The notes: a model not told the origin generated them from the letters alone. DNA of 59,892 nt from a virus (IMGVR_UViG_3300031864_000001:1-59892), one strand, 5' to 3'; numbered from the stretch's first letter, positions 15,466 to 33,068 are shown. Program-made: numbers and translations.

Positions 15466-15510
15466 ATAGGGAACTTATTATGAATTTACAACTAAAAAGG
15501 AGAAGAAGAA

Positions 15511-15732: not shown

Positions 15733-15852
15733 AAGGCTCCCCCAGCGATTTTGAAACAGAAATTGAAGACCCAAAACATTTTTTTATTCAAAATGAAATT
15801 GAGAATCAAAACCATGTCTACGTCGGCACTCCACCGTTTTAGGAGGGGTTTT

Positions 15853-15930
15853 ATGACAACCGAAATCCTCAAAGCCTTATGCGTCCTCTGGCTTCTGGCC
15901 GTGGGAATCTTAATCCTGGGGGTCTTATGA
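15853..15930 (+). CDS. 25-aa membrane peptide
   Basis: RBS AGGAGG; MTTEILKALCVLWLLAVGILILGVL. Confidence 0.6.
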   Translation: MTTEILKALCVLWLLAVGILILGVL

Positions 15931-16040
15931 GAGATATTTGTATCTTTATATCCGATCACATTACATGGATTGGGCCAGCGGCAATATTGGTTATCATATA
16001 TTTCCTGGCCCTGTTAATCGAAGAGATCAAAAAGGGGTAG
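15927..16040 (+). CDS. 37-aa membrane peptide
   Basis: ATGA-coupled; MRDICIFISDHITWIGPAAILVIIYFLALLIEEIKKG. Confidence 0.55.
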   Translation: MRDICIFISDHITWIGPAAILVIIYFLALLIEEIKKG

Positions 16041-16042
16041 CC

Positions 16043-16273
16043 ATGAAATCAAAAAAAGTCAGGGTATGCGTTTATATCTTTGGGGTACTCGCAAAAGACG
16101 AAACATGGGAAATCTGCCGTAAGTCTTTTAATAAATTACTGAACAAAATTCCACGGGATAGGCTGAAAAAGAGAGCGCAGGGACTTCAAATATCTTCCTG
16201 GGGCTCCAAGCAGGACGTTATTGACCGCATATATAGGGATCCGCGAACGTGTACGATAATAGCAAGGATATGA
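16043..16273 (+). CDS. SAP-like domain protein
   Basis: LKKRAQGLQISSWGSKQDVIDRI; start moved to ATG 16043. Confidence 0.55.
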   Translation: MKSKKVRVCVYIFGVLAKDETWEICRKSFNKLLNKIPRDRLKKRAQGLQISSWGSKQDVIDRIYRDPRTCTIIARI

Positions 16274-16274
16274 A

Positions 16275-16493
16275 ATGTCCGACTTTATCCATTTAATGGG
16301 GGCAGAAGATGTGTCAAGGGCTGGATCGGCTATGCGACAAGCCGCTGAAGAGATGCGATCTACCGCCTCTATGATTGAGGATTCGCTACAAAGGCATAGA
16401 ATATTTTTAGATGAATGGCTTTTTAGGTTTGAGGAAGCCATGAAGGAGGATCGAAATGGAAGGGACAATAAAAATCAGCAAAGAGGAAGTTAG
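16275..16493 (+). CDS. Hypothetical protein
   Basis: Helical 72-aa ORF with RBS. Confidence 0.7.
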   Translation: MSDFIHLMGAEDVSRAGSAMRQAAEEMRSTASMIEDSLQRHRIFLDEWLFRFEEAMKEDRNGRDNKNQQRGS

Positions 16494-16671
16494 GGAAATG
16501 GTAACGGATTGGGTAAAGAACAAGGCTTTAACCACGGGCAATATAATAATTAATCAGATTAAAATCGATGGATATGCCAACAGAGAACCCGCACTGGAAA
16601 TTGAATTTACAAACCAACCATTAACACCACCCATAGAACCCAAGGAGGTTCAAGATGGAAATCAAACTTAA
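16456..16671 (+). CDS. Hypothetical protein
   Basis: RBS AAGGAGG; overlapping operon gene. Confidence 0.7.
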   Translation: MEGTIKISKEEVREMVTDWVKNKALTTGNIIINQIKIDGYANREPALEIEFTNQPLTPPIEPKEVQDGNQT

Positions 16672-18586: not shown

Positions 18587-18609
18587 ATTTTAATTAAAAG
18601 GAGGATCTG

Positions 18610-18888
18610 ATGGAAGTAAAAGAAACCAAAAAACATTTACCGTGTGAATTGACAGAAGAAGAAATCGGTGTATTGGCTCGGAAGATTCAAAATGGCTATG
18701 AATTCCGCGATGTAGATTGCGAAATTCAATTTTTAGAAAACGAAAAAGCCGTACAGATCGTTCGACTCGATACGGGGCAAGTTATTGAGAAAAGAGCAAT
18801 GACGCCCGATGAATTACAGAAGAATCTTTTTGAAGAAGAACCCCCCGAAGAAGGGTTTGAAGAAGAAAAGGAGGCAAACCATGAGTAA
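18610..18888 (+). CDS. Hypothetical protein
   Basis: RBS AAGGAGG; LPCELTEEE...RLDTGQVI..RAMT. Confidence 0.7.
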   Translation: MEVKETKKHLPCELTEEEIGVLARKIQNGYEFRDVDCEIQFLENEKAVQIVRLDTGQVIEKRAMTPDELQKNLFEEEPPEEGFEEEKEANHE

Positions 18889-20011
18889 ACCACAAGAAAA
18901 ATTACCAGCAACACAGCAAGGAGAGAGGGGCTTACCCGTAAAGAATGAGACCATTGACGCGGTAAGCAACCGTATCAAGGTCTTGCAAAACTCCGGAGAG
19001 CTACACTTCCCACCGGATTATAGCCCACAGAACGCCTTGAAATCAGCGTGGCTGATTCTGCAAAACGTAGTGGATAGGAATCAGAAGCCAGCATTACAGG
19101 TATGCACAACGGCCAGCATATATAACGCGCTCCTGGACATGGTAATCACCGGCCTCAATCCGGCGAAGGCTCAAGGTTATTTTATCGTGTACGGCAATCA
19201 GCTCGTATTCCAGCGATCTTATTTTGGAACGCAGGCACTAGCCAAGAGGGTGAATTCCGATATTGAGGATATTACAGCCGTGGTCGTGTATAAAGGCGAT
19301 GAATTCGAGTACAGGCTCAGTAAGGGAAAAAGGATTGTGTCAAGGCATACACAGAAACTTGAAAACATTAATTCCAAGAATATCGTTGCCGCTTATTGCG
19401 AGGTCTATAATCACGAAGGGGAAATAATAGCTTCTGATATTATGACCATGGATGAAATCAAGAAGGCTTGGGCAATGAGCAAAATAAAACCGATTACTGA
19501 GAAGGGCGATATCAAGAAAGGTTCTACCCACGATGAATTCACCGAGGAAATGTGCAAGAGGACAATCATAAACCGAACCTGTAAACCGATTATCAACAGT
19601 TCGGATGATAAGCACCTTAAGCTGGCCGCCAGTCGTTCCGAGGTTGTCCGCACGGAAAATGCAATAGAGGAAGAAATTGAGGAACACGCCAATCAAGACT
19701 TTATAGACGTTGATGAGGTAAAAGAGACATCCGGCCAGGAAGAACCCCGGGAAGAACAGGCAAAAGAAGACGCGCCGGACAATGAAGAAAAAGCCTCAGA
19801 TAATAACGGCTCTGGTCGCGTGTATGTTCATTGCGAAAATCCAGATGCCAAAAGCTATTTCAAAAAAAGAATCGCCATAGAGGTCTGTGAGAATAATTGC
19901 AGATTTTTCCCTAAGTGTGAGACGGCCCAGGATGCGCTTAAAAAGGCCATGCCAGGGACAGAGACGGGGGAAGGCGAGGATGGTCAGAAGAAGCTAGGAC
20001 CGGATTTTTAA
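18881..20011 (+). CDS. recT: RecT family ssDNA annealing protein with C-terminal Cys4 module
   Basis: NALKSAWL, GLNPAKAQGYFIVYGNQL.FQRSYFG, EMCKRTII; start ATG 18881. Confidence 0.9.
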   Translation: MSKPQEKLPATQQGERGLPVKNETIDAVSNRIKVLQNSGELHFPPDYSPQNALKSAWLILQNVVDRNQKPALQVCTTASIYNALLDMVITGLNPAKAQGYFIVYGNQLVFQRSYFGTQALAKRVNSDIEDITAVVVYKGDEFEYRLSKGKRIVSRHTQKLENINSKNIVAAYCEVYNHEGEIIASDIMTMDEIKKAWAMSKIKPITEKGDIKKGSTHDEFTEEMCKRTIINRTCKPIINSSDDKHLKLAASRSEVVRTENAIEEEIEEHANQDFIDVDEVKETSGQEEPREEQAKEDAPDNEEKASDNNGSGRVYVHCENPDAKSYFKKRIAIEVCENNCRFFPKCETAQDALKKAMPGTETGEGEDGQKKLGPDF

Positions 20012-20046
20012 TAAATCTTTTAGTGGGTTTAATGAAAGGATATAAG

Positions 20047-20748
20047 ATGGATCAAATTAAAATAAGTGCAAAAAATCTTGGGCAAATAGCCCTTGATGAT
20101 TTCTGTCCAAGGTGTTTCTGGATCAAGCTCAAGGTTAATAATAAACTTCCTTGGCAGATTTTTCCCGGCATCTTTAGCTCTATTGATTCTTATACTAAGA
20201 AATGTACCCATATTCTCATTGATAAGGGATTACAGGATTTGCCGTGGCTATCAACTTTGGGTGAGATAACGAAATATCATAAAACACCTCATTGGTCTAA
20301 ATTTACAACCGATTTCCCGGAGCTTGCTATCACGCTCAATGGTTCAATGGATGATATTTTTGAACTTCAATCAGAGGCCTTTGTGATTGCGGATTACAAA
20401 ACATCAAGATATACGCCCAACCAAGATAAACTTTTGCCATTATATAGAATCCAGCTTAACGGCTATAAAATAATTGCGGAAAGATGTGGGTTTAAAGATG
20501 TTTCAGGTCTTTGGCTTATATATTTTGAACCAGCCACGGAAGAAGGGGATGCAGAGCAGAGGGCTTATCCGAACGGGTTTGATATGAGATTTAATGCAAA
20601 ACCTATTCAAATAGAAATCGATGATTCCTTAATCATAGCAGCCCTAGAAAAAACAAGAGAAATATACGAATTGCCATTGGCTCCAAGGGGCGTAGAGGGG
20701 TGCAAGGATTGTCAAAACCTTAATCCAATAATTGATATGTTTTCATAA
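20047..20748 (+). CDS. PD-(D/E)XK (Cas4/RecB-like) exonuclease
   Basis: CPRCFW, GSMDD, IADYKT, QLNGY, CKDC. Confidence 0.85.
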   Translation: MDQIKISAKNLGQIALDDFCPRCFWIKLKVNNKLPWQIFPGIFSSIDSYTKKCTHILIDKGLQDLPWLSTLGEITKYHKTPHWSKFTTDFPELAITLNGSMDDIFELQSEAFVIADYKTSRYTPNQDKLLPLYRIQLNGYKIIAERCGFKDVSGLWLIYFEPATEEGDAEQRAYPNGFDMRFNAKPIQIEIDDSLIIAALEKTREIYELPLAPRGVEGCKDCQNLNPIIDMFS

Positions 20749-20755
20749 CAGACCA

Positions 20756-21478
20756 ATGAACATCAACATTTACCATAGTTCGAGCGCCAGCAATGTATAT
20801 AGGATAGATGACGGCAACACGCCTATCTTATTAGAAGCTGGCGCTCCTATTAAAAAGATTAAAGAAGCACTCAATTACAAACTATCCAATATCGCAGGGT
20901 GTCTTATATCACACTCTCACATGGACCACGCCAAAGGATTAAAGGACCTCCTGCAATGCGGGGTAGATTGTTACGTGAGCCCTGAAACGGCCCAGGCTTT
21001 GGATTTATCAGGCCACAGGCTACATATTATCAAACCCATGGAGCAGTTCAAGATCGGAACCTGGACGATAAAGGCATTTTATCAGGCTATTACCGATGAA
21101 AAGGGAGAAATTAAACATTTACACGATGCCCCCTGTCTCGGTTTTCTCATGGTATCAGGAGAGAATAAGGTGCTTTTTGCGATTGACACCAATTATATCC
21201 CCTATAGGTTCCGGGGACTGACCCACATAATGCTCGGTGTAAATTATGACAATGAGATCCTTATGGACAACGTCACGCTCGGTCATATTCACCCTGAACT
21301 GACAAAAAGAATACTTAAAAACCACATGAGCCTGAGAACGGCTAAAAACTTTTTTAGGGCAAATGATATGAGTAAGGTCCGGGAGATATACTTACTGCAT
21401 TTATCAGATGGTAACAGTAACGCGGAAAGATTCAAAACGGAGATACAACAGATCACAGGGAGGCCGGTATATGTATAA
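20756..21478 (+). CDS. Metallo-beta-lactamase-fold hydrolase
   Basis: SHSHMDH, HDA, IDT, NHMS, LLHLSDGN. Confidence 0.9.
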   Translation: MNINIYHSSSASNVYRIDDGNTPILLEAGAPIKKIKEALNYKLSNIAGCLISHSHMDHAKGLKDLLQCGVDCYVSPETAQALDLSGHRLHIIKPMEQFKIGTWTIKAFYQAITDEKGEIKHLHDAPCLGFLMVSGENKVLFAIDTNYIPYRFRGLTHIMLGVNYDNEILMDNVTLGHIHPELTKRILKNHMSLRTAKNFFRANDMSKVREIYLLHLSDGNSNAERFKTEIQQITGRPVYV

Positions 21479-21521
21479 CCTTATGAGATATATTGAGAGC
21501 CGTAGATGAAAGGAGAGAAGG

Positions 21522-21698
21522 ATGAAAAAGATAAGGATATTATGGCGATATAGGGAAGATAAAAATACTTCATTTATGGAGGGTTATGTAGAAGAATCAA
21601 ATGATGATTTTTTGTATATTTCCCCAATATCTACGTGGCAAAGTGGGGCATGGTATAAACGAGACGAGATTGAATATTGGGTTATGGGGGAAAAATGA
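21522..21698 (+). CDS. Hypothetical protein (58 aa)
   Basis: Manual translation; RBS AAGGAG. Confidence 0.6.
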   Translation: MKKIRILWRYREDKNTSFMEGYVEESNDDFLYISPISTWQSGAWYKRDEIEYWVMGEK

Positions 21699-21850
21699 AA
21701 GAAATAAACTGGGAAAGTAGATTGTGGAAGGTGAGTGATGCTAAAACAGACAAAGCATTTTTAAACCGTCTATCTAAATGGGTCTTTGACCTGACGGGAA
21801 ATGTCAATGTTACAATGAGATTAAAAACATTATCAATTAAGGAAAAATGA
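21695..21850 (+). CDS. Hypothetical protein (51 aa)
   Basis: Manual translation; ATGA coupling at both ends. Confidence 0.6.
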   Translation: MKEINWESRLWKVSDAKTDKAFLNRLSKWVFDLTGNVNVTMRLKTLSIKEK

Positions 21851-21984
21851 TTTACCTAACCTGCAAACATAGAAGAAATCACCCTAGAGTAAGCATTAGA
21901 GTGTGTGAGAAGTGCCGATACCGAAAGAAGTGTAAAGAGTATCAGGGGTATTTGAGAGAGAGAGAAAATGATTCAGGAAGATGA
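21847..21984 (+). CDS. 45-aa Cys4 protein resembling the RecT tail
   Basis: MIYLTCKHRRNHPRVSIRVCEKCRYRKKCKEYQ. Confidence 0.65.
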   Translation: MIYLTCKHRRNHPRVSIRVCEKCRYRKKCKEYQGYLRERENDSGR

Positions 21985-22123
21985 AATCACAACCTGTGAT
22001 ATATGCGGGAAACAGATATGGTTTAGTGAGGGACTTATTTTTTACATAAACGGTGAACCCCGGCTGTTGTGTAAAAACTGTCAAAAGAAACATGAAAGCA
22101 ATATCATTCAGGAGAAGCCATGA
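21968..22123 (+). CDS. 51-aa zinc-finger protein
   Basis: CDICG...LCKNCQ. Confidence 0.65.
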   Translation: MIQEDEITTCDICGKQIWFSEGLIFYINGEPRLLCKNCQKKHESNIIQEKP

Positions 22124-22293
22124 CAAAATTAGACCAACAGAAAAAAGAAAACTTTTGGAAAGAAAACTTTTGGTACTGTGCCCTTGAAGATGCTATTTTT
22201 TGGATAGGGGAAAACTTAAAACCGGAAGACGTATTTAGCTTCGATAAATTGAAACTATGGGCAAAAAATCATGGATATAAGGAGAAGCCATGA
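22120..22293 (+). CDS. Hypothetical protein (57 aa)
   Basis: Manual translation; flanked by AGGAGAAGCCATGA repeats; internal 15-bp tandem duplication at 22144-22173. Confidence 0.6.
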   Translation: MTKLDQQKKENFWKENFWYCALEDAIFWIGENLKPEDVFSFDKLKLWAKNHGYKEKP

Positions 22294-22478
22294 AAATGCC
22301 TTTTGGAAAATATAAGGGCCATGATATTTGTTTTATCAATTCAGGTTATCTTAGGTGGCTCTTAGATCAGGATTGGTTTTTGCGAAGGGATGAAAACGAG
22401 ATCCTAGCCATAGAAAAGGAGCTTGAATTGAGGGATATGGATAGCTCACATTTTTATGAGGATAAAATAAATGTATAA
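22290..22478 (+). CDS. DUF3820-like protein
   Basis: MPFGKYKG...YLRWL. Confidence 0.8.
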   Translation: MKMPFGKYKGHDICFINSGYLRWLLDQDWFLRRDENEILAIEKELELRDMDSSHFYEDKINV

Positions 22479-23202
22479 ACGAGGCTGGATATTTCAAGGC
22501 TGGGGAATACGGGCTATTCTTGCGGGTCAAAAGACCATGACGAGAAGGATTCAGGGGTTAGAGTATATCAATAAAGAGCCCGATAATTGGGAACTAATAT
22601 CACCTGAAACGATTCCTTATGTTATGGGTGCTACATTCCGAAGCAAGCAAGACGCCTCTATAGTGAACATGAAATGCCCCTACCAAGTCGGTGACATACT
22701 TTGGTTGAGGGAGACATTTTGTTATGCTAAACCATTTGGCTATGATGCCCGTGATGACGGGGGAGAAATTTGGTATCGGAGTACAGATCAAAATGTATGT
22801 GAGGGTCCCTGGAAACCTTCTATCTTCATGCCTCAACGAGCCTCCCGGATTGATGTCGAGATAACAGGCATTAAAGCACCCGAAAGGGTGCAGAGTATAC
22901 CGGAAGACGATGCGATTAGGGAAGGGTTTGAACCAGATGCTAAAGAGATATGGTGGCAAGGATATAGAGAAATGGATTATAAAAATGGACAAACCGACCT
23001 TGTTCATCAGGAATATATTGGAGATGAACCTCCTTCGTGGATGATAGAACCACATAAAATGTTAGATAAACCTTGGCCAAGGTTTTCTGCAAAACTGAAA
23101 TTTGAAAATAAATGGATCGAAATCCACGGCCCCGGAGCATGGAGGCGGAACGACTGGGTATGGCCGTATGAGTTCAGCTTGATCACTTTAATCGGAGGAT
23201 AA
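22471..23202 (+). CDS. ASCH/PUA-like phage protein
   Basis: AILAGQKTMTRR, CPYQVGDILWLRETF, WKPSIFMP, WVW. Confidence 0.8.
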   Translation: MYKRGWIFQGWGIRAILAGQKTMTRRIQGLEYINKEPDNWELISPETIPYVMGATFRSKQDASIVNMKCPYQVGDILWLRETFCYAKPFGYDARDDGGEIWYRSTDQNVCEGPWKPSIFMPQRASRIDVEITGIKAPERVQSIPEDDAIREGFEPDAKEIWWQGYREMDYKNGQTDLVHQEYIGDEPPSWMIEPHKMLDKPWPRFSAKLKFENKWIEIHGPGAWRRNDWVWPYEFSLITLIGG

Positions 23203-23206
23203 AGCC

Positions 23207-23602
23207 ATGACAAACGAACAACTTGACCGATGGTTGGCTGAGGCTGAGAATGTGATGGGATGGATTTTATCATCGTATAGTAAACTGTTTTGGCATGTCA
23301 AAACGGGTCTAACAACAGGTTTTAGTAATAGTAAGGTTGGGGGAATGGATAATCTTTGGCATCCCACGACCTCAATCGAACAGGCGATGATGTGTGCTGA
23401 AAAATTAAGGCTAACAGGATATAAGATTACTTTATGGGGAAACCCACCAGAGGCAGTAAAGACAGATTCGGGTGGTAAGGCCGGATATCATTGTAGAATT
23501 ATTCCTTATGGGCAGGGTATGGAAAAGTCAATCCATGCCAAAACCCCTGAACTAGCAATATGCAAGGCAATCTATGAAGCACTAAATGACACAAAAGAGT
23601 AA
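23207..23602 (+). CDS. Phage ABA-sandwich domain protein
   Basis: VMGW...WHPTTSIEQAM..AEKL...TPELAICKA. Confidence 0.75.
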   Translation: MTNEQLDRWLAEAENVMGWILSSYSKLFWHVKTGLTTGFSNSKVGGMDNLWHPTTSIEQAMMCAEKLRLTGYKITLWGNPPEAVKTDSGGKAGYHCRIIPYGQGMEKSIHAKTPELAICKAIYEALNDTKE

Positions 23603-23783
23603 AGCCATGACCGCCCTATACGAAGAAATAGACAGGTTGAAAAGGGAAAACGGAGACCTGAAATATCACTTACGGACAATAGAACAGAAAGCCATTAGCC
23701 TATTAAGCGGTGGGCCTATTGGGCAAATTGTTGACATACGAGATATAGCAAGAGAAGCCCCGAAAAGAGGGAAGGATGAATAA
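23586..23783 (+). CDS. Hypothetical coiled-coil protein
   Basis: ORF in operon orientation. Confidence 0.6.
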   Translation: MTQKSKAMTALYEEIDRLKRENGDLKYHLRTIEQKAISLLSGGPIGQIVDIRDIAREAPKRGKDE

Positions 23784-23946
23784 TCCAGATGCAATAATAG
23801 CCAATGCTACATGGGGTGCTTGTTGGTATTGCAAGTTTTTTGATAGCAAGGGTGGTTGTGGGGTGGCTAGTAGTCCAGAAGATTTTGAATATGACCCCCT
23901 TTTAGAATCTTTTGTTTGTAAATTATATGAACAAGAGGAAAAATAA
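23776..23946 (+). CDS. 56-aa Cys-rich protein
   Basis: Manual translation; CWYC...C...C. Confidence 0.55.
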   Translation: MNNPDAIIANATWGACWYCKFFDSKGGCGVASSPEDFEYDPLLESFVCKLYEQEEK

Positions 23947-23992
23947 TTGACCCATCTCCCCCAAATAGATAATATCCCCCAAAAGGGGGTGA
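23947..23992 (+). promoter_or_regulatory. Recombinase promoter and RBS-occluding hairpin
   Basis: TTGACC-N17-TAATAT followed by CCCCC-AAAA-GGGGG hairpin covering the SD. Confidence 0.55.
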
Positions 23993-23997
23993 TAGAA

Positions 23998-25047
23998 TTG
24001 AGCAATAGATGTCGGATTGTCTATCTCAAGGACAGGAAAGAGTATGCACTCAGGCTTTACTGGAAGGGGAAGGAGTATCACAGGGGACACTATGACAACC
24101 GATTAAGGCTTATTTATAAGAAGCTCGCTGAACGCCTGCAATCAGCCATTAATCAGGACATAGACGACAAGGGAGAGGATTTCGACCCCCGGATGTGGTT
24201 TGTGTCAGACCGGGAGCTACAATTCTCATACGCTGTGGACGAATGGTATAAGACAAAGGAATACGCCCCGGGGACTATTAGAAACGTGGAATCAGCCATA
24301 GCAAGGGCAAAAGAGTATTTTGGGGATACCAATATCAAAACCATCCGCAAGGCTCATATCAAAAAATTCGTGGACACCCTGCCTCAATCCCCGAATACCA
24401 AGAGGGCAATCTTAAGCTACCTGAAATCGGCCTTAAATGATATATGCGATGACTGGCACTTGATGAGGATACCCTTTCCCTTTATTACCATACCCTACAG
24501 CGAACAGAAGTGGCTAAAAAGAGAACAGCAGGATAAGCTAATAAACCTTATCCCTGATTATAATTACCCGATATTCAGGCTAATGCAAGCCTATGGTTGC
24601 CGAACCTCTGAGGCGTGTGCCTTGATGTGGGATTGTGTGGATTGGGAAGAAAGGACAGTCTTTTTCAAGAGAACATTCTCAGCCCAGACTATTTTAAGGG
24701 AAACGACTAAAACGGGATATTATAGGAAGGTTCCACTGACAGACAATATCATAATCCTGCTTAGACCCTTACGCTTGGATATTAGCAATCAGTTTGTTTT
24801 TAAGAACCTCTTGGGTGAGCCGTACAGACAGCAAACAGTATGGCAGATATGGAATAGGATATTAAAGAGAAACGACATAGAGCATATATCAGTTAAGAAC
24901 GCCTTTAGGCATAGCAAGGTAAGCCAATTAGAGGAGGCGGGGTATTCCCTAGAAGAACGTCAGAGATTTATGGGACATAGGAATCCGAACACGACACAGA
25001 TTTATTCACATAAAGATGTGCAAGAATTGAAAGGAATGGTGGGATGA
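23998..25047 (+). CDS. Tyrosine recombinase/integrase
   Basis: GCRTSE, TKTG, NAFRHS (His of HxxR replaced), MGH, TQIY; N-terminal arm-binding-like region; probable TTG start at 23998. Confidence 0.9.
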   Translation: MSNRCRIVYLKDRKEYALRLYWKGKEYHRGHYDNRLRLIYKKLAERLQSAINQDIDDKGEDFDPRMWFVSDRELQFSYAVDEWYKTKEYAPGTIRNVESAIARAKEYFGDTNIKTIRKAHIKKFVDTLPQSPNTKRAILSYLKSALNDICDDWHLMRIPFPFITIPYSEQKWLKREQQDKLINLIPDYNYPIFRLMQAYGCRTSEACALMWDCVDWEERTVFFKRTFSAQTILRETTKTGYYRKVPLTDNIIILLRPLRLDISNQFVFKNLLGEPYRQQTVWQIWNRILKRNDIEHISVKNAFRHSKVSQLEEAGYSLEERQRFMGHRNPNTTQIYSHKDVQELKGMVG

Positions 25048-25244
25048 TGTTCGTTGTTAGAAAATATTTAGCATACCTTGTTTTTGATGAATCTGAGGGG
25101 ACTGATAGTCCAACAATCGCCATCGAACCATTAAATAATTTAGTAACACCTGCTATTTTTGAAGAGCAACGCTATGGAAAAAATCCATTAGATGCTTATA
25201 GAATGGCGAGAAAAATAGCGAAAGATCTTAATAATAAAGAATGA
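25044..25244 (+). CDS. Hypothetical protein
   Basis: ATGA-coupled to the recombinase. Confidence 0.6.
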   Translation: MMFVVRKYLAYLVFDESEGTDSPTIAIEPLNNLVTPAIFEEQRYGKNPLDAYRMARKIAKDLNNKE

Positions 25245-25277
25245 AAAAGTACGAAAGTGATACGAGAGGGAGAAAAA

Positions 25278-25478
25278 ATGGCACATTCTGAAGTATGTCC
25301 GGTTTGTCGTGGTAGGGGTATAGTTGAGGCTCACCCTGAATGGCAAACAGACATAAACGCCTCAACACCAAAGCCCTGTCATGGATGTGGTGGATTAGGT
25401 TGGGTAAGTGTTCAAGATGAATCTATTACAAAATTAATTCATGGTCATATTCCAACAGCAACAGATGGGCAGAGATAA
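25278..25478 (+). CDS. DnaJ-type zinc finger protein
   Basis: CPVCRGRG and CHGCGGLG. Confidence 0.75.
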   Translation: MAHSEVCPVCRGRGIVEAHPEWQTDINASTPKPCHGCGGLGWVSVQDESITKLIHGHIPTATDGQR

Positions 25479-25480
25479 AT

Positions 25481-25759
25481 AACCCTCCCCGCCGGAAATG
25501 GCAATAGACATATGTGAAGATTTTATAAAATATACATTTGGAAAGGAAAACAATGCGGGTTTGTAGTTTTTGTGGCAATACTGAAGCAGAGGTCGAAGTT
25601 ATAATTGCGGGGCCGTCTGGACTTTTTATCTGTGAGACCTGCGTTGAGTTATGTTGGGAAATAGTTAAAGATCGAAAAGGAGCTCGTCTTATAAAAGAAA
25701 TTGAACAAGAGAAGTTTAATGAATTATGGGGCACAGACTAACAACCCTCCCCGCCGGAA
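25481..25759 (+). repeat. 17-bp direct repeat A (AACCCTCCCCGCCGGAA) x2
   Basis: 25481-25497 and 25743-25759, flanking one gene. Confidence 0.9.
25553..25741 (+). CDS. Stand-alone ClpX-type C4 zinc finger
   Basis: CSFCG...IIAGP...FICETCVELC.EI. Confidence 0.85.
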   Translation: MRVCSFCGNTEAEVEVIIAGPSGLFICETCVELCWEIVKDRKGARLIKEIEQEKFNELWGTD

Positions 25760-25778
25760 GGGGAAAGGAGAGAGTGAT

Positions 25779-26063
25779 ATGGAAAGACCTAAAGAAAAAT
25801 ACAATGAAGAGTATGACCTTCATTATTATGATGATTATGAAGCAGACCAATATATGGACGACCTCGAATCCCGCCTCAAGAAAGTGGAGGCGAGAATGGA
25901 GGAAGCAAGGGAATCTTTAGAAACCGACCCCGATTATGATACAGGACTCATTAATGACTATGGTGGTGGCAATATCGGGTGGTGGCAGGATTACATACGG
26001 TCAGAGATTGAAAGATGCAATGAATATTGGAAGGAAAGAATAGAACAAGCCCTCAAGGAATAG
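25779..26063 (+). CDS. Hypothetical protein (paralog of next gene)
   Basis: MERP...LESRLKK...ALKE. Confidence 0.7.
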   Translation: MERPKEKYNEEYDLHYYDDYEADQYMDDLESRLKKVEARMEEARESLETDPDYDTGLINDYGGGNIGWWQDYIRSEIERCNEYWKERIEQALKE

Positions 26064-26082
26064 GGCAATAAAAGGAGAGAAG

Positions 26083-26397
26083 ATGGAGAGACCAAATATA
26101 TACAGTGAAAAATACCAAGGAATGCCGTCTGCCGTTATAGAAGATCAAGAAGAATATATCAATTACCTCGAATCCCGCCTCAAGAAAGCAGAGGCGAAGG
26201 TGGAGAAAGCCATTACCATTACCGTTGAAGATTGCGAAAATTGGGTCTGTTTTTCAAAAGTAAGAGGTCATAATTGTTATGCTTGCTCCATGAGAAAGGG
26301 TTATCCATTCAGGGGACAACCGGACAATAAGCGTGAAAGATTTAAATTAAAACAAACCCTTAAGGAGGACGACCATGAAAAAGAAGAAGGTCATTAG
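26083..26397 (+). CDS. Hypothetical protein (paralog of previous gene, Cys-rich variable part)
   Basis: MERP...LESRLKK...TLKE. Confidence 0.7.
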   Translation: MERPNIYSEKYQGMPSAVIEDQEEYINYLESRLKKAEAKVEKAITITVEDCENWVCFSKVRGHNCYACSMRKGYPFRGQPDNKRERFKLKQTLKEDDHEKEEGH

Positions 26398-26566
26398 ATT
26401 TTTAAAAGATGTCATAGTTAATCATGAGTATTGGGCATGGCGATTTAAAAAATACCCGAAACTTGAAAAGAAATATGTCGCCACAGGTGAGTGGGATGAT
26501 GCAAAAATGCAAAGGAAGCATGTTAAGCGATATAAGCAAATCATAAGTTACATAAAAAAATTATAG
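26375..26566 (+). CDS. Basic hypothetical protein
   Basis: RBS AAGGAGG. Confidence 0.65.
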   Translation: MKKKKVIRFLKDVIVNHEYWAWRFKKYPKLEKKYVATGEWDDAKMQRKHVKRYKQIISYIKKL

Positions 26567-26953
26567 GGCAACAACCCCTTCACTCGGCTAGGTGGGGTTG
26601 GGGTGAGGAAAGGAGGAAGCACGAGAGTGTGTAGAGAAAATCAAAGTTTATGGAAAGGAATAGCCTTGTGTTTTAATGGCTTTGATAAATGGTATTATCT
26701 TAAAAGATTGTTTCGGCTTGTCTTTTATGGTAATGGATATTTCTGGCATGACACGCTAGGAAGGTATATTAATCGATGGTTCATTTGTCCTTTAATCGGA
26801 CATAGAAATATTCGCTATCTTGATAATGGTGGTTGTCGTGGGGAGCAACCTTATTATCATTGTTTTGATTGTGAACAGAGAATTAACTTAAAGAAAATTT
26901 AACCCCTAGACAGTAGGGCAACAACCCCTTCACTCGGCTAGGTGGGGTTGGGG
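26564..26953 (+). repeat. 40-bp perfect direct repeat B with hairpin, x2
   Basis: TAGGGCAACAACCCCTTCACTCGGCTAGGTGGGGTTGGGG at 26564-26603 and 26914-26953; CAACCCC/GGGGTTG stem. Confidence 0.95.
26603..26902 (+). CDS. Hypothetical protein (C...GH...CxxC type)
   Basis: ICPLIGH...CFDCE; lies between the B repeats. Confidence 0.65.
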   Translation: MRKGGSTRVCRENQSLWKGIALCFNGFDKWYYLKRLFRLVFYGNGYFWHDTLGRYINRWFICPLIGHRNIRYLDNGGCRGEQPYYHCFDCEQRINLKKI

Positions 26954-26967
26954 AGAAAGGAAAAATT

Positions 26968-27384
26968 ATGGATAGAAGAAAAGCAATAAAACATATAATA
27001 AGTATAATAGGGGGCGTACCTATAATATCAAAATTAGGTATTTGTGGAAACAAAGATGATGAACCATTAATTTGTAAACAAAAGTTTTTTAGAGGTCAAA
27101 CCGTCAAAATAATAAGAGCCCTTCCTGCCGATATGAATCATTTTGAACCTGGTGTAAGGGCCATTATTGAGTATAGCTATTCGGATCGTTATGGCGGAAA
27201 CGACACTGGAAGTTATTCCTTATTGCTTTTAGAGCCTTATCCTCATTCTGTAGCATGGTATGAAGAAAATCAACTTATACTTATTAATTCAGATCGGGGT
27301 ATAGGAGAAAAAATATTACAAAATTATAAAGAGAATAATTTACGGCGGTATATTCAATATGTTTATCGTATGACGGCACAGTGA
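26968..27384 (+). CDS. Hypothetical protein with twin-arginine-like N-terminus
   Basis: MDRRKAIK plus hydrophobic stretch; VAWYEENQL SH3-like region. Confidence 0.65.
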   Translation: MDRRKAIKHIISIIGGVPIISKLGICGNKDDEPLICKQKFFRGQTVKIIRALPADMNHFEPGVRAIIEYSYSDRYGGNDTGSYSLLLLEPYPHSVAWYEENQLILINSDRGIGEKILQNYKENNLRRYIQYVYRMTAQ

Positions 27385-27421
27385 GTCTAGTTTCACGCCT
27401 GCAAGATGAAAGGAGACGGAG

Positions 27422-27844
27422 ATGAAAAAGATAATATTTGTTTTGGTAATGTTAATGATAGCAAGTTTTTCTTTCGGAAAAGCATATAACTGGAAATTAC
27501 CAGATAATTCGATTCCCAAAGAATACCCCGATTACCTTTTGGTAATTAGATATTGGGGCTCAAAGCTTCAACAAGAAGGGGATATAGCATATTCTATACA
27601 GACATGGATATATTCTTATGAAGTCTATGATAGCCTTGATGAAGTGATAAATCGCTTAAATACTTATTGTGGACAAGGGATGACGGCAGAAGACAAAGAA
27701 ACAGATTTAGTTGGTTTATGGAGACTAGGCGGGCAAGAGCAGAATATATTAGATAAGGTTATCCAAATAGACGAAATCCCTCATGAAAAAGAAGTTAAAA
27801 TTGAAACCCGTGAATGGATAGAGTATCAATGGAAAAAGAAATAG
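27422..27844 (+). CDS. Secreted hypothetical protein
   Basis: Sec signal MKKIIFVLVMLMIASFSFG; RBS AAAGGAG. Confidence 0.75.
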   Translation: MKKIIFVLVMLMIASFSFGKAYNWKLPDNSIPKEYPDYLLVIRYWGSKLQQEGDIAYSIQTWIYSYEVYDSLDEVINRLNTYCGQGMTAEDKETDLVGLWRLGGQEQNILDKVIQIDEIPHEKEVKIETREWIEYQWKKK

Positions 27845-27895
27845 TGCAGGCCCCCTAGAGGCGGTATATTCAACTAGGTTTTACGCCTGCAAGAT
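27845..27895. terminator. Hairpin at the convergence of the two transcription arms (repeat C)
   Basis: TGCAGGC/GCCTGCA and CCTAG/CTAGG arms; no U-tract, so terminator function is inferred from position. Confidence 0.5.
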
Positions 27896-28053
27896 TATCC
27901 CTTTAATGATTTGCCTACCGCAACACCGAATAACCCTGTCAATGCACTTTGAACGAGTCCCAATGCTTCAACGCTTGGATTCGCAAATATAGCACATAGA
28001 CAGATAATAACAGTTGCCCCAATAACGAGATCTTTATCATCCAAATCTGGCAT
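27895..28053 (-). CDS. 52-aa two-TM holin-like protein
   Basis: Manual translation MPDLDDKDLVIGATVIICLCAIF...GLFGVAVGK; RBS GAGGAGG. Confidence 0.65.
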   Translation of the reverse strand: MPDLDDKDLVIGATVIICLCAIFANPSVEALGLVQSALTGLFGVAVGKSLKG

Positions 28054-28055
28054 TT

Positions 28056-28235
28056 TTATTCCTCCTCATAGGTATCCGGATGAGGAACCCTGTCTGCCAA
28101 GGCCCGGATATCCTCCGCAGTAGGATTATCGGTTTCAAGGGCCGCTAAGATTTTTAAGGTTGCTGGAACACCATATTTTAAAACAAGTTCCAGTATTGTC
28201 ATGCCGACAGTTATTCTCTCTTCTATTTTTCCCAT
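28056..28235 (-). CDS. 59-aa lysis-cassette protein
   Basis: Manual translation ...LVLKYGVPA...PTAEDIRAL; RBS GGAG. Confidence 0.6.
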   Translation of the reverse strand: MGKIEERITVGMTILELVLKYGVPATLKILAALETDNPTAEDIRALADRVPHPDTYEEE

Positions 28236-28237
28236 GA

Positions 28238-28603
28238 CTAATCTCCCTTCAAAAACGGCTGAATATATTTTGTAAGAGTATTAAGGCATTTAATAGCTTC
28301 ATTAATAGCTACATTTACCTTTTCTCTGTTCTCAGCCGAATTAAATGAATCGTAAGCCTCTAATGCCCTTTCTGCTGAATGATAAGCAGCCCAATATTTC
28401 ACGGCTAAATCATAACCCTTTTCTTTATCCGCGTCAGATATCAAACCTTTCTTATGTAATTCAAGAAAAGCTGGATAACCTTCTTCATAGCCTGTTGCGG
28501 CTATATCTAAAGTTTGGTACGATGCAGCCCGGAAATTTGATGCGCAGGCCATTAAGAAAAATACGAAAAATAAAAACATTGTATAAAATTTCAATTTCCT
28601 CAT
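28238..28603 (-). CDS. Lipoprotein, spanin candidate
   Basis: Lipobox LMAC after a hydrophobic signal; helical body; follows the endolysin. Confidence 0.7.
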   Translation of the reverse strand: MRKLKFYTMFLFFVFFLMACASNFRAASYQTLDIAATGYEEGYPAFLELHKKGLISDADKEKGYDLAVKYWAAYHSAERALEAYDSFNSAENREKVNVAINEAIKCLNTLTKYIQPFLKGD

Positions 28604-28646
28604 GGTTCTTTTCCTCCTATGTTAAAAGATTAATTTGTCTTCGATA

Positions 28647-29231
28647 TCATTGTCTAAACGGATCAATAAAACCCTTGATTCCGGTTCTGGTACGAAAAGG
28701 CCGGATCTTGATATATGCGTTCTGGTCAATAGCCTCTTTTTCCGACTTCGTCCCGCTACCTCCGCCAGAAGCACCTATTGAAAGTTCATTGTTAATGCAA
28801 ATCTCAACATGAATCGCCTTATTAGAATCGTTTTGCCAAAACACGAGGCAACCAGACCGGGGCTTTTGCACTTCTTTATCTTTTAATAATTCCCATAAGC
28901 CCTGTGCTGTCCAGTCTCCCCCTCTAGGCAAAACATCAACGCTTTTAAGTAGCTCAATAGCATAGCCTGAACAATCAAAGCCCTGCATAGGATCATCACC
29001 ACCCCAATAATAGGGCTTGCCTAAATAAGCCCATGCTATTTTAATGGCTATATCTCTTTTTTCTTCCATTGTTATCATGTATCTCTTTAGCCTCCTTATT
29101 GTTTTCAGCATTGCATTGGCATGCTCTTCGGCTTTGTCCGATGCTCCATTTTCCAAGCAAAGCAGAATTAACTTGATCGAATACTCAAAATGAGAAATTA
29201 GATTGCTGTATTGTCGAACAGCCATTATCAT
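28647..29231 (-). CDS. NlpC/P60 peptidase (endolysin candidate)
   Basis: YLGKPYYWGG, GFDCSG, LVFW, HVEI. Confidence 0.85.
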   Translation of the reverse strand: MIMAVRQYSNLISHFEYSIKLILLCLENGASDKAEEHANAMLKTIRRLKRYMITMEEKRDIAIKIAWAYLGKPYYWGGDDPMQGFDCSGYAIELLKSVDVLPRGGDWTAQGLWELLKDKEVQKPRSGCLVFWQNDSNKAIHVEICINNELSIGASGGGSGTKSEKEAIDQNAYIKIRPFRTRTGIKGFIDPFRQ

Positions 29232-29518
29232 TCTTTTTCTAATTGGGTTTTAATCACTGCAATATCGGTCTTCATCTCTCCGAATTCCGACAAGATCTCC
29301 TTATTGGAACCATAGAGAAGGGTGAATAATGTACCCATCAAGCCGAACATAATAACAATTACCGTAACCATTACAGCCCAGGAAGCCTTCTTGCTTATTG
29401 CGGACCATAAATGTTCAAGGGTGCCATTAGGATCAGTCATCTTTGTTTTCCAATTACACAATTCAACCACCTTTTGTTTGATCCCACCCCATTGTTGGAC
29501 GATCTCTTGGTTATCCAT
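29228..29518 (-). CDS. Holin-like single-TM protein
   Basis: One TM (WAVMVTVIVIMFGLMGTLFTLLY); upstream of endolysin. Confidence 0.55.
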   Translation of the reverse strand: MDNQEIVQQWGGIKQKVVELCNWKTKMTDPNGTLEHLWSAISKKASWAVMVTVIVIMFGLMGTLFTLLYGSNKEILSEFGEMKTDIAVIKTQLEKE

Positions 29519-29519
29519 T

Positions 29520-32500
29520 TCACTTTCCTCCAGCTAATTGGGCTTTAAGGTTGTCAATTTCTGCCTGCTGGTCTTGGATTAATTGATATAGTTGCTGTAT
29601 CGCCACGACATTCATACTTATTGAAGCCCCCAGGTCCCTTCTCTCTTCCGTTTCTGTTCCTAAATAGATTTCCTGATAGACCACGCCATCTTCCTTGCGG
29701 AGCATCCCATCACCGGCCTTTTGATAGAGCTTTCCAGTATCTCGGTCAAAATAAACATCTTTTTTTAATTGCGTCTCAGGAACCATTTCTGTCTGATAAA
29801 CAGGTTCTCGCCTGGTTCTCTCGATAACCTCACCGTCCTCTATCGTATAACCTTCGGAGATTTCGTCATAGCCTAATAATACTGGCTCTCTTTCGATTCT
29901 TCTCTCACCACTTTCCTCATTAATAACCTCTTTTTCTTCTAATACATTCCTTTCCACATAAGCGGTCTCAAAAGCCTCATTACTTGATATTTCTTGAAGT
30001 TCTACGTCCTCAAAAATTGGTTTCACTCCTGAATGTCTTACAAACTCAGGTAAGGTCGAATGATCTATTTGTCTGCCCTTACCTCTTATCTTAGCAATCT
30101 CACTGAGGGCATCACCTTCAAAATAAGGTGTTCTATCAGTGATTGGATCTCCTGATATTTCTCCAGTGCCATATACAAGTCCTTGAAAATAGCCTGCATA
30201 ATTGGTAGTTGCCCCTTGCGCCACTGCGTATACACCATAATTGGTAGTGCCAGCCCCTGTCGCCGTTCCATATAATGCAGTATTGTTTGAACCCGCTCCC
30301 AACTGTTGGGCATATATTGCAGTTGAACCATTGCTAGAAGTAGAGCCCATAATAGCCCCTGTGCCGTCCGCTATAACATCAAGAGCATACTCGGGTGTAG
30401 TATCGCCGATGCCGACGTTACCTAATGTGCTTCCACCTTCAATTGTTAATACTGGGGTATTAGCAGAGCCGTGTGCGATAGTAAAGTCTCTTGCTCCGGT
30501 TTGGTCACGAGTATTATAATGAATCGTTGTCTGTTTTCCACCTTCAAAATGGCTAAACCCGTTAGTATCTGTTCTCATTCCTGTAATATCCGAGTGGGAT
30601 TCTGATAACAATTGATCTGAATTTGTATTGAACCCGACATATTTCGCACTTTCAGGAGATTTAATCACAAGCCCAAGCCCCGGACTCGTCGTCCCGATGC
30701 CGACCCTGCCACCGTTGAAATATGAATCACCAGAACCAAGTAAACGTATTGTTTCTGTTTCGGAAGAATCATAAATACTAACTCTTCCGTGATTTGAGTT
30801 AGTTGAAACTACAAAAATTTGTCTATTTGAATTATCAGAATTTTTAATCTGAATCATTCCCGATGATACTGGAGCAATAACTCTAAGCAAACCGCCAATT
30901 ACATCCAACTTTGCCCCCGGACTCGTCGTCCCGATGCCGACGTTGCTCGTTGTACTAATATCTCCATTAGTCGAATCAAATGTCCATCCATCAGCACCAG
31001 AGACACCCATGAAGCCGCCGTCGGGAATGTAGAGGTTGGCAAAAGTAGGGCTTGCATCAGTCGTCAAATCCTGATTAAGCAAAGAGGCACTTTCGACTGT
31101 CAACCCACCAGACAAGGAAATGGTTTGTCCCTGAACACTTGTTAAATTGGCAAGCGTGTCTATCGCCGGTTCAATTTCAGCTTCCGTATCAAGAGTACCA
31201 GCACCACTCAGAGAATCATGATCTATTTCACCATCTTGCACAACTCCAGAGATTAAAGGAGTTCCATCATCATAAGTGAAAACGATCTCCCCTACTGTGC
31301 CATCATCAAGATTAAGGCCTACCGCATCCTGGGCCTCTTCATCTGTATATGCTCCTGGTCCGGCATCAAACACAAATTCTCCTGCTATATCATCCCACAT
31401 GAGATATTCGTCAGCGTCAGGATCGGCAGGGAAGATAGTATCAGAGCCACCTACTTCCAGGATGGATTCATCTATATCGAAAGTGCCATCACTTGCTATA
31501 GAGCCATCTCCTGCAAATAAAACAGGGTTGAAATTAGCGCCATCAGCAACAAGAATGTTTCCGTCATAATTAGTGTGCATAGTGAGATCGTTACCATCTA
31601 TTGTCAAATCTCCACCAAGCCAAGTGTTGCCTGTCCCTCCATCTACCACCAGAGCATCTGTATGTGTATTGGATTCCACCCGGAAATCTATGTCCCTTCC
31701 CTGCCCATTGATGGTTACTTCACCTTCACCCACAGAACCATTATAGCCTGATATCTCAAACAAATTGGCTTCAGTGTCGTCAATGGCCACCATGAAAGTA
31801 AAACCACCGGCCCTGTCCCCGTTTGTGACATCCTTTGTTTCGCCCAGGAGATATCCATACCGTTCTTTGACGCTTGTGGAGGTTTCACCATAAATATCTA
31901 TGGCCATAACATCATCATCGTCTGCCGGACTGGCTGAATTCTTATAAAACTGGATAGAGGTAAGATTCGGGTCCGCATTAGTGTTTTCGAGTTTTATTAT
32001 AGGCTCATTCGGGTCGCTGCTGAATAGAGATAATTCAGTCCCCATTATGACATCACCGGAAACAGTGAGGTCCCCTTCTATATATCCGTCTCCATCAACT
32101 TCCAGATCATCTTTTATTAAAAGGTCATCTGTGCCGTCTATGCTTGTAACTGTGCCACCACCCACATCAAGGGTTGCAGCCGGCGTAGCATCTCCAATTC
32201 CAACGTTACCCGTAGCACCGTCAATAACAAAGGCATTAGCAGAACCGGATGCTTCTATTCTGAAATCCCTATCGGCTCCGCTTTCATTTAATACTATTTC
32301 TCTTGCAGACATTTTGATGGCAGTTTCAAGTTCACCATTTCTTGCAACCTCATAAAGAACAGCCCCCTCTTCTTCCCCATCAGTAATGTCCTCCGCTATA
32401 ATGGTAGTACGCGCATATTCGTAAGAATCATTATTATCGTTATTCATCCGATACCAAATATACATCGTGTCATTATTTGTAGGCGTGTCTCTTTTTCCTT

Positions 32501-33068
32501 CTAAATTAAGGATAGAAACATTCGCATTATCTTCTATATTTAATATATGAAGGGTAGCTGTGGGAAGCTCTGTTCCTATACCAATATTGTTTGTTAGTTG
32601 GAATATTAAACTATCAGCCAAAGCCCCTATACCGACATAAGGTAAATATCCATCTGTTAAACCGGTTAGATCCAGGCCTGCAAATGTAGGAGAAGCATCT
32701 GTAGTGTAATCCTGATCTAATGTGCTTATTGACTCAACAGTCAACCCGTCAAGTAAGGATATAGTTTGACCTTGAATACTGGTAAGATTAAGAAGGGTAT
32801 CAATAGCGGGTTCTATCTCTGCTTCGGTGTCTAATGTTCCTGCACCCGTAATATCGTCGTGATCTAAGGCAGATTCCAGAGTATTCTCTGTAGTGCCGTC
32901 AATATTATCCAAACCGTTTAGGTGGCTATCCCCCTGCATATCTAAGCTAATAACATCTATTGCTTTAGCTGTTGCCCCTTCGACGACTAATTGTCCATCA
33001 TCACAAAAGGCTGGAGTAGAAAAGAGAAGCAAAAACAGTAAAATTATAAATGATTTAAATTTATCCAT
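29520..33068 (-). CDS. Tail fibre/adhesin with VGIGT repeats and C-terminal chaperone-like domain
   Basis: Five (V/I)GIG(T/D) repeats; C-terminal TDRTP...IDHSTLPEF...coiled coil resembling peptidase S74; N-terminal signal-like peptide. Confidence 0.8.
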   Translation of the reverse strand: MDKFKSFIILLFLLLFSTPAFCDDGQLVVEGATAKAIDVISLDMQGDSHLNGLDNIDGTTENTLESALDHDDITGAGTLDTEAEIEPAIDTLLNLTSIQGQTISLLDGLTVESISTLDQDYTTDASPTFAGLDLTGLTDGYLPYVGIGALADSLIFQLTNNIGIGTELPTATLHILNIEDNANVSILNLEGKRDTPTNNDTMYIWYRMNNDNNDSYEYARTTIIAEDITDGEEEGAVLYEVARNGELETAIKMSAREIVLNESGADRDFRIEASGSANAFVIDGATGNVGIGDATPAATLDVGGGTVTSIDGTDDLLIKDDLEVDGDGYIEGDLTVSGDVIMGTELSLFSSDPNEPIIKLENTNADPNLTSIQFYKNSASPADDDDVMAIDIYGETSTSVKERYGYLLGETKDVTNGDRAGGFTFMVAIDDTEANLFEISGYNGSVGEGEVTINGQGRDIDFRVESNTHTDALVVDGGTGNTWLGGDLTIDGNDLTMHTNYDGNILVADGANFNPVLFAGDGSIASDGTFDIDESILEVGGSDTIFPADPDADEYLMWDDIAGEFVFDAGPGAYTDEEAQDAVGLNLDDGTVGEIVFTYDDGTPLISGVVQDGEIDHDSLSGAGTLDTEAEIEPAIDTLANLTSVQGQTISLSGGLTVESASLLNQDLTTDASPTFANLYIPDGGFMGVSGADGWTFDSTNGDISTTSNVGIGTTSPGAKLDVIGGLLRVIAPVSSGMIQIKNSDNSNRQIFVVSTNSNHGRVSIYDSSETETIRLLGSGDSYFNGGRVGIGTTSPGLGLVIKSPESAKYVGFNTNSDQLLSESHSDITGMRTDTNGFSHFEGGKQTTIHYNTRDQTGARDFTIAHGSANTPVLTIEGGSTLGNVGIGDTTPEYALDVIADGTGAIMGSTSSNGSTAIYAQQLGAGSNNTALYGTATGAGTTNYGVYAVAQGATTNYAGYFQGLVYGTGEISGDPITDRTPYFEGDALSEIAKIRGKGRQIDHSTLPEFVRHSGVKPIFEDVELQEISSNEAFETAYVERNVLEEKEVINEESGERRIEREPVLLGYDEISEGYTIEDGEVIERTRREPVYQTEMVPETQLKKDVYFDRDTGKLYQKAGDGMLRKEDGVVYQEIYLGTETEERRDLGASISMNVVAIQQLYQLIQDQQAEIDNLKAQLAGGK
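30678..30941. repeat. 27-bp perfect direct repeat in the fibre gene
   Basis: CCCCGGACTCGTCGTCCCGATGCCGAC at 30678-30704 and 30915-30941; 11-bp core again at 30408-30418. Confidence 0.92.

Follow-up and report, generated by a model that had tools for sequence, protein, structure and literature searches.

Short, weakly palindromic repeats on either side of a small gene (g140) in a temperate phage genome of 59.9 kb are best read, with modest confidence, as linkers between gene cassettes that serve as boundaries for recombination, and not as an attachment site. The repeat is referred to below as element C. Exchange points in mosaic phage genomes are rarely caught fresh. Here g140 is found in three states: nearly unchanged between unrelated flanks in another phage, which carries a homologous, longer form of the element; replaced at the copies of the element in close relatives; and flanked in the present genome by two decayed linker copies. 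The phage, its relatives and the unrelated phage (phage X) all come from salt-marsh metagenomes. On the favoured reading they would provide a concrete and testable case of single genes being shuffled under the guidance of linkers in temperate phages, beyond the T4-type phages in which the principle was first described, and would correct the tempting misreading of such repeats as att sites.

The window, by which we mean the whole stretch of DNA that was analysed, is a linear virus record from IMG/VR, 59,892 nt long and estimated by CheckV to be 100% complete, and it is a whole temperate phage. A block of genes on the - strand spans the ends of the record and terminates at 27895. It encodes a DnaB-like helicase, the large terminase, portal/adaptor, major head and internal virion proteins, ORFs of 3024 aa and 1182 aa, and an NlpC/P60 endolysin; because the endolysin-like gene lies at 28647-29231, the block ends in lysis genes. 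The opposing + strand block, from about 15.9 kb to 27844, encodes an SbcC-like protein, a RecT-like annealing protein, a hydrolase and a tyrosine integrase, and eight small co-oriented ORFs lie downstream of the integrase gene. The genes that matter for the argument are as follows.

18809-20011, + strand, RecT-like single-strand annealing protein (phrog_148, E 2.8e-62)
23947-25047, + strand, tyrosine integrase at the head of the small-gene array, start codon uncertain (phrog_1, E 4.5e-49)
26603-26902, + strand, g8, an ORF of up to 99 aa with an uncertain start, between two exact copies of repeat B
26968-27384, + strand, g138, 138 aa, a small widespread family without a Pfam name
27408-27421, + strand, ribosome-binding stretch GAAAGGAGACGGAG 5' of g140
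27422-27844, + strand, g140, 140 aa, swappable cargo with a hydrophobic, signal-like N-terminal helix
27895-28053, - strand, 52-aa ORF, the last gene on this strand, its stop overlapping the final base of element C
28647-29231, - strand, NlpC/P60 endolysin-like gene (PF00877, E 1.3e-10)

Searches of Pfam and PHROG assigned no family to g8, g138, g140 or the 52-aa ORF. The tRNA is the sole Rfam match in the window at the gathering threshold, and 25000-28100 gave no Rfam match at E<=1. A distant blastn search of the phage GenBank collection with 25400-28700 found no match, and a scan of IMG/VR for relatives of the integrase found none. The RecT-like protein has 73 loci in IMG/VR, of which L009 alone is close (99%); the others are at most 62% identical and were excluded from the comparison of junctions.

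Element C occurs twice in the window, and a small hairpin nearby has to be kept apart from it.

27344-27407, + strand, internal copy of element C, long form without part a
27845-27895, no strand assigned, junction copy of element C, short form (from the sequence, ORFs, folds and alignment A5)
26903-26918, + strand, small hairpin CCCCTAGACAGTAGGG directly 3' of the g8 stop, containing the 8-nt CCCCTAGA

The junction copy fills the entire 50-nt gap between the stop codon of g140 (27842-27844) and that of the 52-aa ORF (27895-27897). It consists of part a (27845-27859, TGCAGGCCCCCTAGA), part b (27860-27873) and part d (27874-27895). The internal copy is made of b (27344-27357), c (27358-27386) and d' (27387-27407), with b and c extending over the final 13 codons of g138 and its stop. 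The window has exactly two occurrences of the 14-mer GGCGGTATATTCAA, at 27344 and 27860, and exactly two of the 13-mer ACGCCTGCAAGAT, at 27395 and 27883. When the 51 nt of the junction (27845-27895, directly behind 27844) were compared with the rest of the window by gapped local alignment, the best match was 27344-27407 with a score of 47.4. None of 100 first-order Markov sequences reached this score (26.3 +/- 2.2, maximum 33.2), and the two-piece relation through b and d is therefore real.

The initial annotation had described the junction as an intact terminal hairpin whose second copy was split into three pieces by insertions. The letters that it quoted are all in place, and two of the three pieces, GGCGGTATATTCAA and the roughly 21-nt CTAG..ACGCCTGCAAGAT, do recur in the same order at 27344-27407. 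The third piece, the 8-nt CCCCTAGA at 26903, has to be dropped. It has three matches in the window against 1.97 expected, at least three were seen in 32 of 100 shuffles, and the gapped alignment stops short of it. The octamer is instead the 5' arm of the separate hairpin CCCCTAGACAGTAGGG, a 16-mer identical to nucleotides 1-16 of the metagenome contig L005. Scans of IMG/VR for exact C patterns yielded no further copies of the element, and a short-word blastn search with C and two other linkers (B and D9, described below) against 79 loci gave matches only in L003, L004 and L005, so that the known copies of C total three.

These three contigs form the lineage that we call phage X, their mutual overlaps being 99.5-99.9% identical. 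The DNA of g140 in phage X is 98.5-99.8% identical to that in the window (1 mismatch in 454 positions for L003, 3 in 461 for L004 and 6 in 409 for L005). The match is confined to 27411/27418-27871, that of L005 ending at 27819. A tblastx comparison of the 4229-nt L003 with the window at E<=1e-4 found nothing else in common, and the convergent genes of L003 are phage-like and different: a DUF1353 protein (PHROG label tail assembly chaperone), an SLT transglycosylase and an LRR protein. The left edge of near-identity, at 27411-27418, falls in the ribosome-binding stretch of g140. On the upstream side of g140, C is absent from phage X and near-identity ends at the ribosome-binding site, and therefore not every boundary lies in a repeated linker.

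In phage X the order is g140, the element in the form a+b+c+d, a ribosome-binding site and an 82-aa gene. The full element measures about 80 nt and is composed of a (TGCAAGCCCCCTAGA), b (GGCGGTATATTC), c (31 nt) and d (CTAGGATTTACGCCTGCAAGAT). The internal copy of the window is 85.5% identical to positions 831-906 of L004 over 76 columns. In the three-way alignment A5 the internal copy is b+c+d without a, the junction copy is a+b+d without c, and the 29 nt at 27358-27386, which had been called an insert, align with the 31-nt c part of phage X. As judged from this alignment, the c parts of the two phages are homologous. Because the long form in phage X holds the homologous 31 nt, the 29 nt are an old part of the element and not an insertion that split it. 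It follows that the supposedly intact junction copy is the shortened one, probably through deletion of c, a direction assigned by parsimony from two lineages.

Element C is one of several repeated linkers in the small-gene array, the others being the following.

25467-25504, + strand, linker D9 copy 1, ahead of the 67-aa ORF at 25538-25741
25729-25766, + strand, linker D9 copy 2, behind the same 67-aa ORF
26564-26606, + strand, repeat B copy 1, linker ahead of g8
26914-26956, + strand, repeat B copy 2, linker ahead of g138, 40 nt exact against copy 1

The two copies of D9 are 82% identical over 38 nt. The start GGGCA..ACAACCC is common to D9 copy 2 and both copies of B, and D9 copy 1 has GGGCA and the variant AATAACCC. 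An IMG/VR scan for repeat B found none. Three successive genes lie between direct linker repeats, namely the ORF at 25538-25741 (D9), g8 (B) and g140 (C). The block of repeat B plus gene, which had been taken as an insertion separating the pieces of the hairpin, is simply the next cassette.

The same design is found with another linker in a further lineage, L006/L007. Here the homologue of g140 is 52% identical and is flanked by AAGGCCGCCCCGG(A/G)GGA... L007 has three copies of this linker, which are placed on the two sides of an 88-aa ORF and of the g140 homologue. Only from the first base of the linker onward do L006 and L007 agree with each other, at 99.86% identity, and their terminal linker copy forms a clean GC hairpin with TTTTT behind it on the - strand. 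Six proteins of the g140 family were found, including that of the window (alignment A2), and a metagenome scan with this alignment returned six loci; no member was found in the scan of IMG/VR for relatives or in genome_contigs.

The relatives of the window phage in salt-marsh samples allow the exchange to be followed at the same position. At least part of 26400-28600 is contained in 22 salt-marsh metagenome runs, 13 of which contain at least half of the sampled words. Contigs, not reads, from four runs were placed on 13500-30000 at a likeness of at least 88%. The breakpoints depend on this cut-off, the joints and loose ends are those listed only, and stretches that lack contig cover in some runs were excluded. 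Two of the four runs, X4 and X8, each have one contig with matches to 26914-27389 and to 27846-29852. The X8 contig has 488 nt between the two matches; because only 23 of these (27422-27444, the start of g140) fit the window, g140 is replaced in it. Judged by these contigs, the X4/X8 relatives carry an unlike sequence of similar length in place of g140. The breakpoints of the replacement, 27389 and 27846, lie inside the internal copy of C and in the first bases of the junction copy, respectively.

Similar observations were made at the neighbouring linkers. In X4 and X8 a joint runs from 26388 to 26914, the base with which repeat B copy 2 begins. A further X8 contig has its only match at 26564-26918, which comprises B copy 1, g8 and the small hairpin; it departs from the window at 26918, where L005 begins to differ as well. 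In L009, the close relative with the 99% identical RecT, one gene is absent and a methyltransferase-like ORF replaces two small ORFs. At a joint from 22109 to 22280 (X4 and X8), 14 letters fit both sides and consist of a repeated ribosome-binding site plus ATG, and at this joint short-homology exchange, as read from the contigs, is visible elsewhere in the population.

g140 is present in the window, absent at the same place in close relatives and common to the unrelated phage X. When boundaries were compared in related phages, as the initial annotation had proposed, the replacement of g140 in X4/X8 was seen to break at the C copies. What survives of its recurrent insertion target is the coincidence of both copies with breakpoints of gene exchange, with phage X and at 27389 and 27846 in the relatives; insertions into the hairpin itself are not supported. 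The breakpoints in or beside C fall at four places (27389, about 27411, 27846 and 27871), and four different breakpoints fit homologous rather than site-specific exchange.

The initial annotation had also proposed the hairpin as a possible attP. The point where lysis genes and an integrase block converge is a common place for attP on temperate phage maps. Element C lies where the lysis genes and the integrase-bearing block converge, and the junction is an imperfect palindrome. It is nevertheless extremely unlikely that the junction hairpin serves as attachment site and that the internal copy is left over from a previous one. In phage X the element stands between two co-oriented genes, and the convergent junction of phage X has no spacer of any kind. 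The element is duplicated within the window phage and is separated from the integrase gene by 2.8 kb and eight ORFs. No arm-type repeats were found within 250 nt of the site, the only repeats in 27600-28150 being a 9-nt direct repeat that lies wholly on the right of the site and a 9-nt inverted repeat on the left. None of the joints and loose ends listed for the contigs of the four runs falls at 27845-27895. The search for a bacterial att core, also proposed earlier, gave 0 exact matches for the central 24-mer of the element in species-representative bacterial genomes (genome_contigs), a weak negative from one 24-mer matched exactly. The integrase gene has a repeat cluster of its own directly upstream, at 23890-23995; these repeats and the ORF-free stretch behind the tRNA, at 15194-15510, are alternative candidates for attP.

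A different role for the integrase is suggested by the layout of the array. In integron arrays, a tyrosine recombinase gene lies beside small co-oriented ORFs that lack promoters and have an imperfect palindrome behind each of them, and integron cassettes are common to unrelated genomes. The present phage is alike in having a recombinase gene directly upstream of a co-oriented array of eight small ORFs with palindromes, and cassettes that occur in unrelated genomes. The direct repeats that flank the cassettes are what a single crossover with a circle would give. Moreover, the unit common to the window and phage X can be read as ribosome-binding site + g140 + a+b+(c)+d, ending ..GCAAGAT in both phages (A5), and several boundaries lie at TAGGG (26564, 26914 and 26918). 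The array might then be a phage-borne platform for cassette capture, in which single genes with their palindromic linker move as circles that the tyrosine recombinase at the head of the array inserts site-specifically at the linker. If this were true, insertion would take place preferentially at the terminal hairpin of the operon, each event leaving a decayed copy of the linker. The adjacent recombinase might catalyse the capture, the array would be an integron analogue in a temperate phage, and the L006/L007 design would be its second instance.

We consider such a platform very unlikely. The integrase fails the integron-integrase model, with 24.8 bits against TIGR02249 where the cut-off is 265; its best NCBIfam match is of the XerA type (74.8 against a cut-off of 220). 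Inspection of the linkers by eye revealed no R''/R' core, the inverse core of the attC type. Breakpoints around C are not at a fixed position, as a site-specific reaction at the linker would have it, but at the four places given above. Finally, the integrase module is missing or unlike in the contigs of most relatives, as dips in depth indicate, yet their cassettes vary.

A serious rival to the linker reading, although an unlikely one in our judgement, is passive hitch-hiking: the C copies would be leftover flanks, carried along in random illegitimate joining and followed by selection for joints that fall between genes. Breakpoints at gene edges are also expected from random joining with selection for viability, which we counted against the linker reading. 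The left boundary with phage X, at a ribosome-binding site where no copy of C is present, would fit hitch-hiking, as would the unremarkable folds and the small number of known C copies; the latter two points, folds no better than shuffles and three copies in all, also weigh against the linkers. Random joining does not predict direct repeats around genes, however, and the repeats therefore speak against it: three successive genes are each flanked by a repeated linker (D9, B with 40 nt exact, and C), the genes of L007 are likewise flanked by a different one, and one joint has 14 letters common to both sides.

The folds themselves were compared with shuffled sequence. The stem of the hairpin described in the initial annotation is present but weak, with -16.2 kcal/mol on the + strand (z -0.93, equalled by 39 of 200 shuffles) and -17.4 on the - strand (z -1.26, equalled by 26 of 200). 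The internal copy lacks the 5' arm, and shuffled sequence folds equally well (z +0.80). Over the whole range, from z -1.26 to +0.80, none of the folds of the element beats shuffled sequence.

Such values bear on the idea that the element is functional RNA punctuation only, be it a terminator, an attenuator or a processing site, with the recombination boundaries incidental to it. This is quite unlikely, since an internal copy that has lost its 5' arm and folds at z +0.80 argues against it, as does the outer stem of the element in phage X, which has a mismatch that no compensating change makes good (A5). The genes before and after the element differ, and the element has no Rfam match. The idea draws on the - strand, where the junction stem is followed by a T-rich run, where the terminal copy of L006/L007 is a GC hairpin with TTTTT and where several linkers were flagged as terminator-like. 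Because the terminator scan did not flag the junction, we go no further than to say that the junction copy, with its - strand stem followed by CTATTTCTTTTT, may also terminate transcription of the late (lysis) operon.

The proteins encoded on both sides of the internal copy were also considered. The conserved domain of g138 covers approximately residues 37-122, and residues 126-138 are encoded by sequence of element C. Of 149 homologues, 127 have an alignment that extends to residue 110; in these the tail has a median length of 5 aa, and it is at most 6 aa long in 71 and at least 16 aa long in 38. An abnormal extension of g138, or its fusion into the element, was rejected as an account of the 16-aa tail on these counts; such tails are common in the family, and the tail by itself is therefore no evidence of fusion. 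Plain tandem gene duplication was likewise rejected, because g138, g140 and g8, when compared with each other, are not paralogues. The structure model of g140 (pLDDT 76.6, pTM 0.59) had no match in the PDB at E<=0.001, the best TM-score being about 0.2.

How would inter-cassette linkers of this kind bring about the exchanges? On the linker reading, the + strand block would end in an array of small accessory genes behind the integrase gene, with linkers made of a weak palindrome and a ribosome-binding site and repeated on both sides of individual genes. From a full element a+b+c+d of about 80 nt, the internal copy would have lost a and run into the end of g138, and the junction copy would have lost the 31-nt c. 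The linkers, together with similar ribosome-binding sites and gene starts of the MKK... type, would provide brief stretches of homology. When two phages infect the same cell, or a phage meets a prophage, recombination could then add, remove or replace one gene and leave its neighbours undamaged. We infer that the homology of the linkers causes the exchanges and that RecT takes part in them. The RecT-like annealing protein of the phage itself is a candidate catalyst of short-homology exchange and would probably drive it; that the phage encodes both RecT-like and SbcC-like proteins was counted in favour of the linker reading.

Relaxed homologous recombination by Rad52-like/RecT recombinases of phages has been described (De Paepe et al. 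2014, PMC3945230). In the part of that study used here, the system is similar to ours in that a temperate phage with a single-strand annealing protein undergoes mosaic exchange at short patches of similarity. The patches of homology in the present phage are, in comparison, very short (14-40 nt), and the role of RecT in it is putative.

The closest parallel is with the promoter-early stem-loop (PeSL) regulatory cassettes of T4-type phages (Arbiol et al. 2010, PMC2839356; Comeau et al. 2014, PMC4122927). From what the consulted portions of these two papers describe, PeSLs and the present linkers are both short intergenic motifs that are repeated and do not exceed about 100 bp. In each, the stop codon of the upstream gene leads into a stem-loop, which is followed by a Shine-Dalgarno sequence and the next gene's start. 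The genes that they flank are small, without known function and located in variable regions, insertions, deletions and replacements among relatives are bounded by the motifs, and the mechanism proposed is recombination between flanking copies (PMC2839356, PMC4122927). Unlike PeSLs, C, B and D9 contain no sigma-70-type promoter, with the qualification that the promoter type of the host may differ: the promoter scan gave 16 matches against 15.2 expected, none of them in the short form of C, in B or in D9, and the only + strand match touching C, at 27406-27435, runs over the start of g140. The stem-loops here are weak and the linker sequences are unrelated to PeSLs. Whereas T4-type phages carry PeSLs, the present phage is temperate, integrase-bearing and not T4-like. 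Mini-circles belong to the PeSL system; the present linkers were analysed in contigs. The analogy suggests a known principle, that of PeSL-like linkers, now operating at single genes in a temperate phage.

g140 also has features of a moron. Morons are described as independent transcription units ('The moron comes of age', PMC3594210). As far as the part of that article used here goes, g140 resembles them as a single accessory gene between or behind resident genes near the end of the late/lysogeny block, with horizontal spread among unrelated phages and, in g140, a small cargo with a signal-like N-terminus (PMC3594210). Unlike a moron, g140 has no promoter of its own that we could find, and its terminator would be the stem and T-run that are present on the - strand only.

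In both lineages, that of the window and that of L006/L007, the stem is better preserved in the copy at the convergent junction than in the internal copies, which are decayed.

Contigs of relatives from the salt-marsh metagenome runs X4 and X8 (aligned to window positions 13500-30000 with a likeness of at least 88%) lack 170 nt of the window, skipping from 22109 to 22280. The 14 letters at this joint, a repeated ribosome-binding site with its ATG, match both sides, so the gap is a short-repeat deletion that took out one small gene. A comparison was also made between positions 1440-3490 of L009, an IMG/VR locus closely related to the phage, and window 20011-21840. RecT is 99% identical in the two, the gene encoding 241 amino acids at window 20023-20748 is absent from L009, and a methyltransferase-like ORF in L009 stands at the place of the window's small ORFs.

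Over window 23969-25621, which holds the tyrosine integrase gene and the next two small genes, the depth of the relatives' contigs drops steeply in three of the four salt-marsh runs whose contigs were aligned. Judged from these contigs, the integrase module appears to be variable within the population. In the region immediately 5' of the integrase gene (23890-23995), TTGACC-17-TAATAT has a sigma-70-like form, the direct repeat AT(C/A)TCCCCCAAA is present twice, and there is also an inverted repeat of 14 nt; these features could be operators or attP-arm sites. In the array of small plus-strand accessory ORFs behind the integrase gene, two adjacent genes share a 63-nt stretch (25844-25906 and 26148-26210) that is 81% identical, and they are thus local paralogues.

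The X4 and X8 contigs cease to match the window at 29852, inside an ORF of 1182 aa (29520-33068) placed between the virion and lysis genes of the minus-strand block, so that only about its last 110 codons are shared. No family match was found for this ORF. The loss of match at 29852 may represent a host-range module swap. Among the virion genes, 35580-44654 is occupied by a single minus-strand ORF of 3024 aa.

A tRNA-Met gene and the ORF-free stretch directly after it (about 320 nt) occupy window 15119-15510. The tRNA encodes its CCA and has a mismatched first acceptor pair; by eye it looks initiator-like. The ORF-free stretch holds one long-range inverted repeat with arms at 15208-15217 and 15305-15314 and a second with arms at 15322-15333 and 15408-15419. 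One X8 contig leaves the window at 15205.

Four copies of a repeat of about 19 nt, CTGTCATCTGTTTAGATGA, adjoin the DnaB-like helicase gene at 6315-6456. The copies resemble iterons and could indicate a replication origin. A GGC-rich array with a period of 9 nt (9989-10213) lies within the minus-strand ORF 9911-10591.
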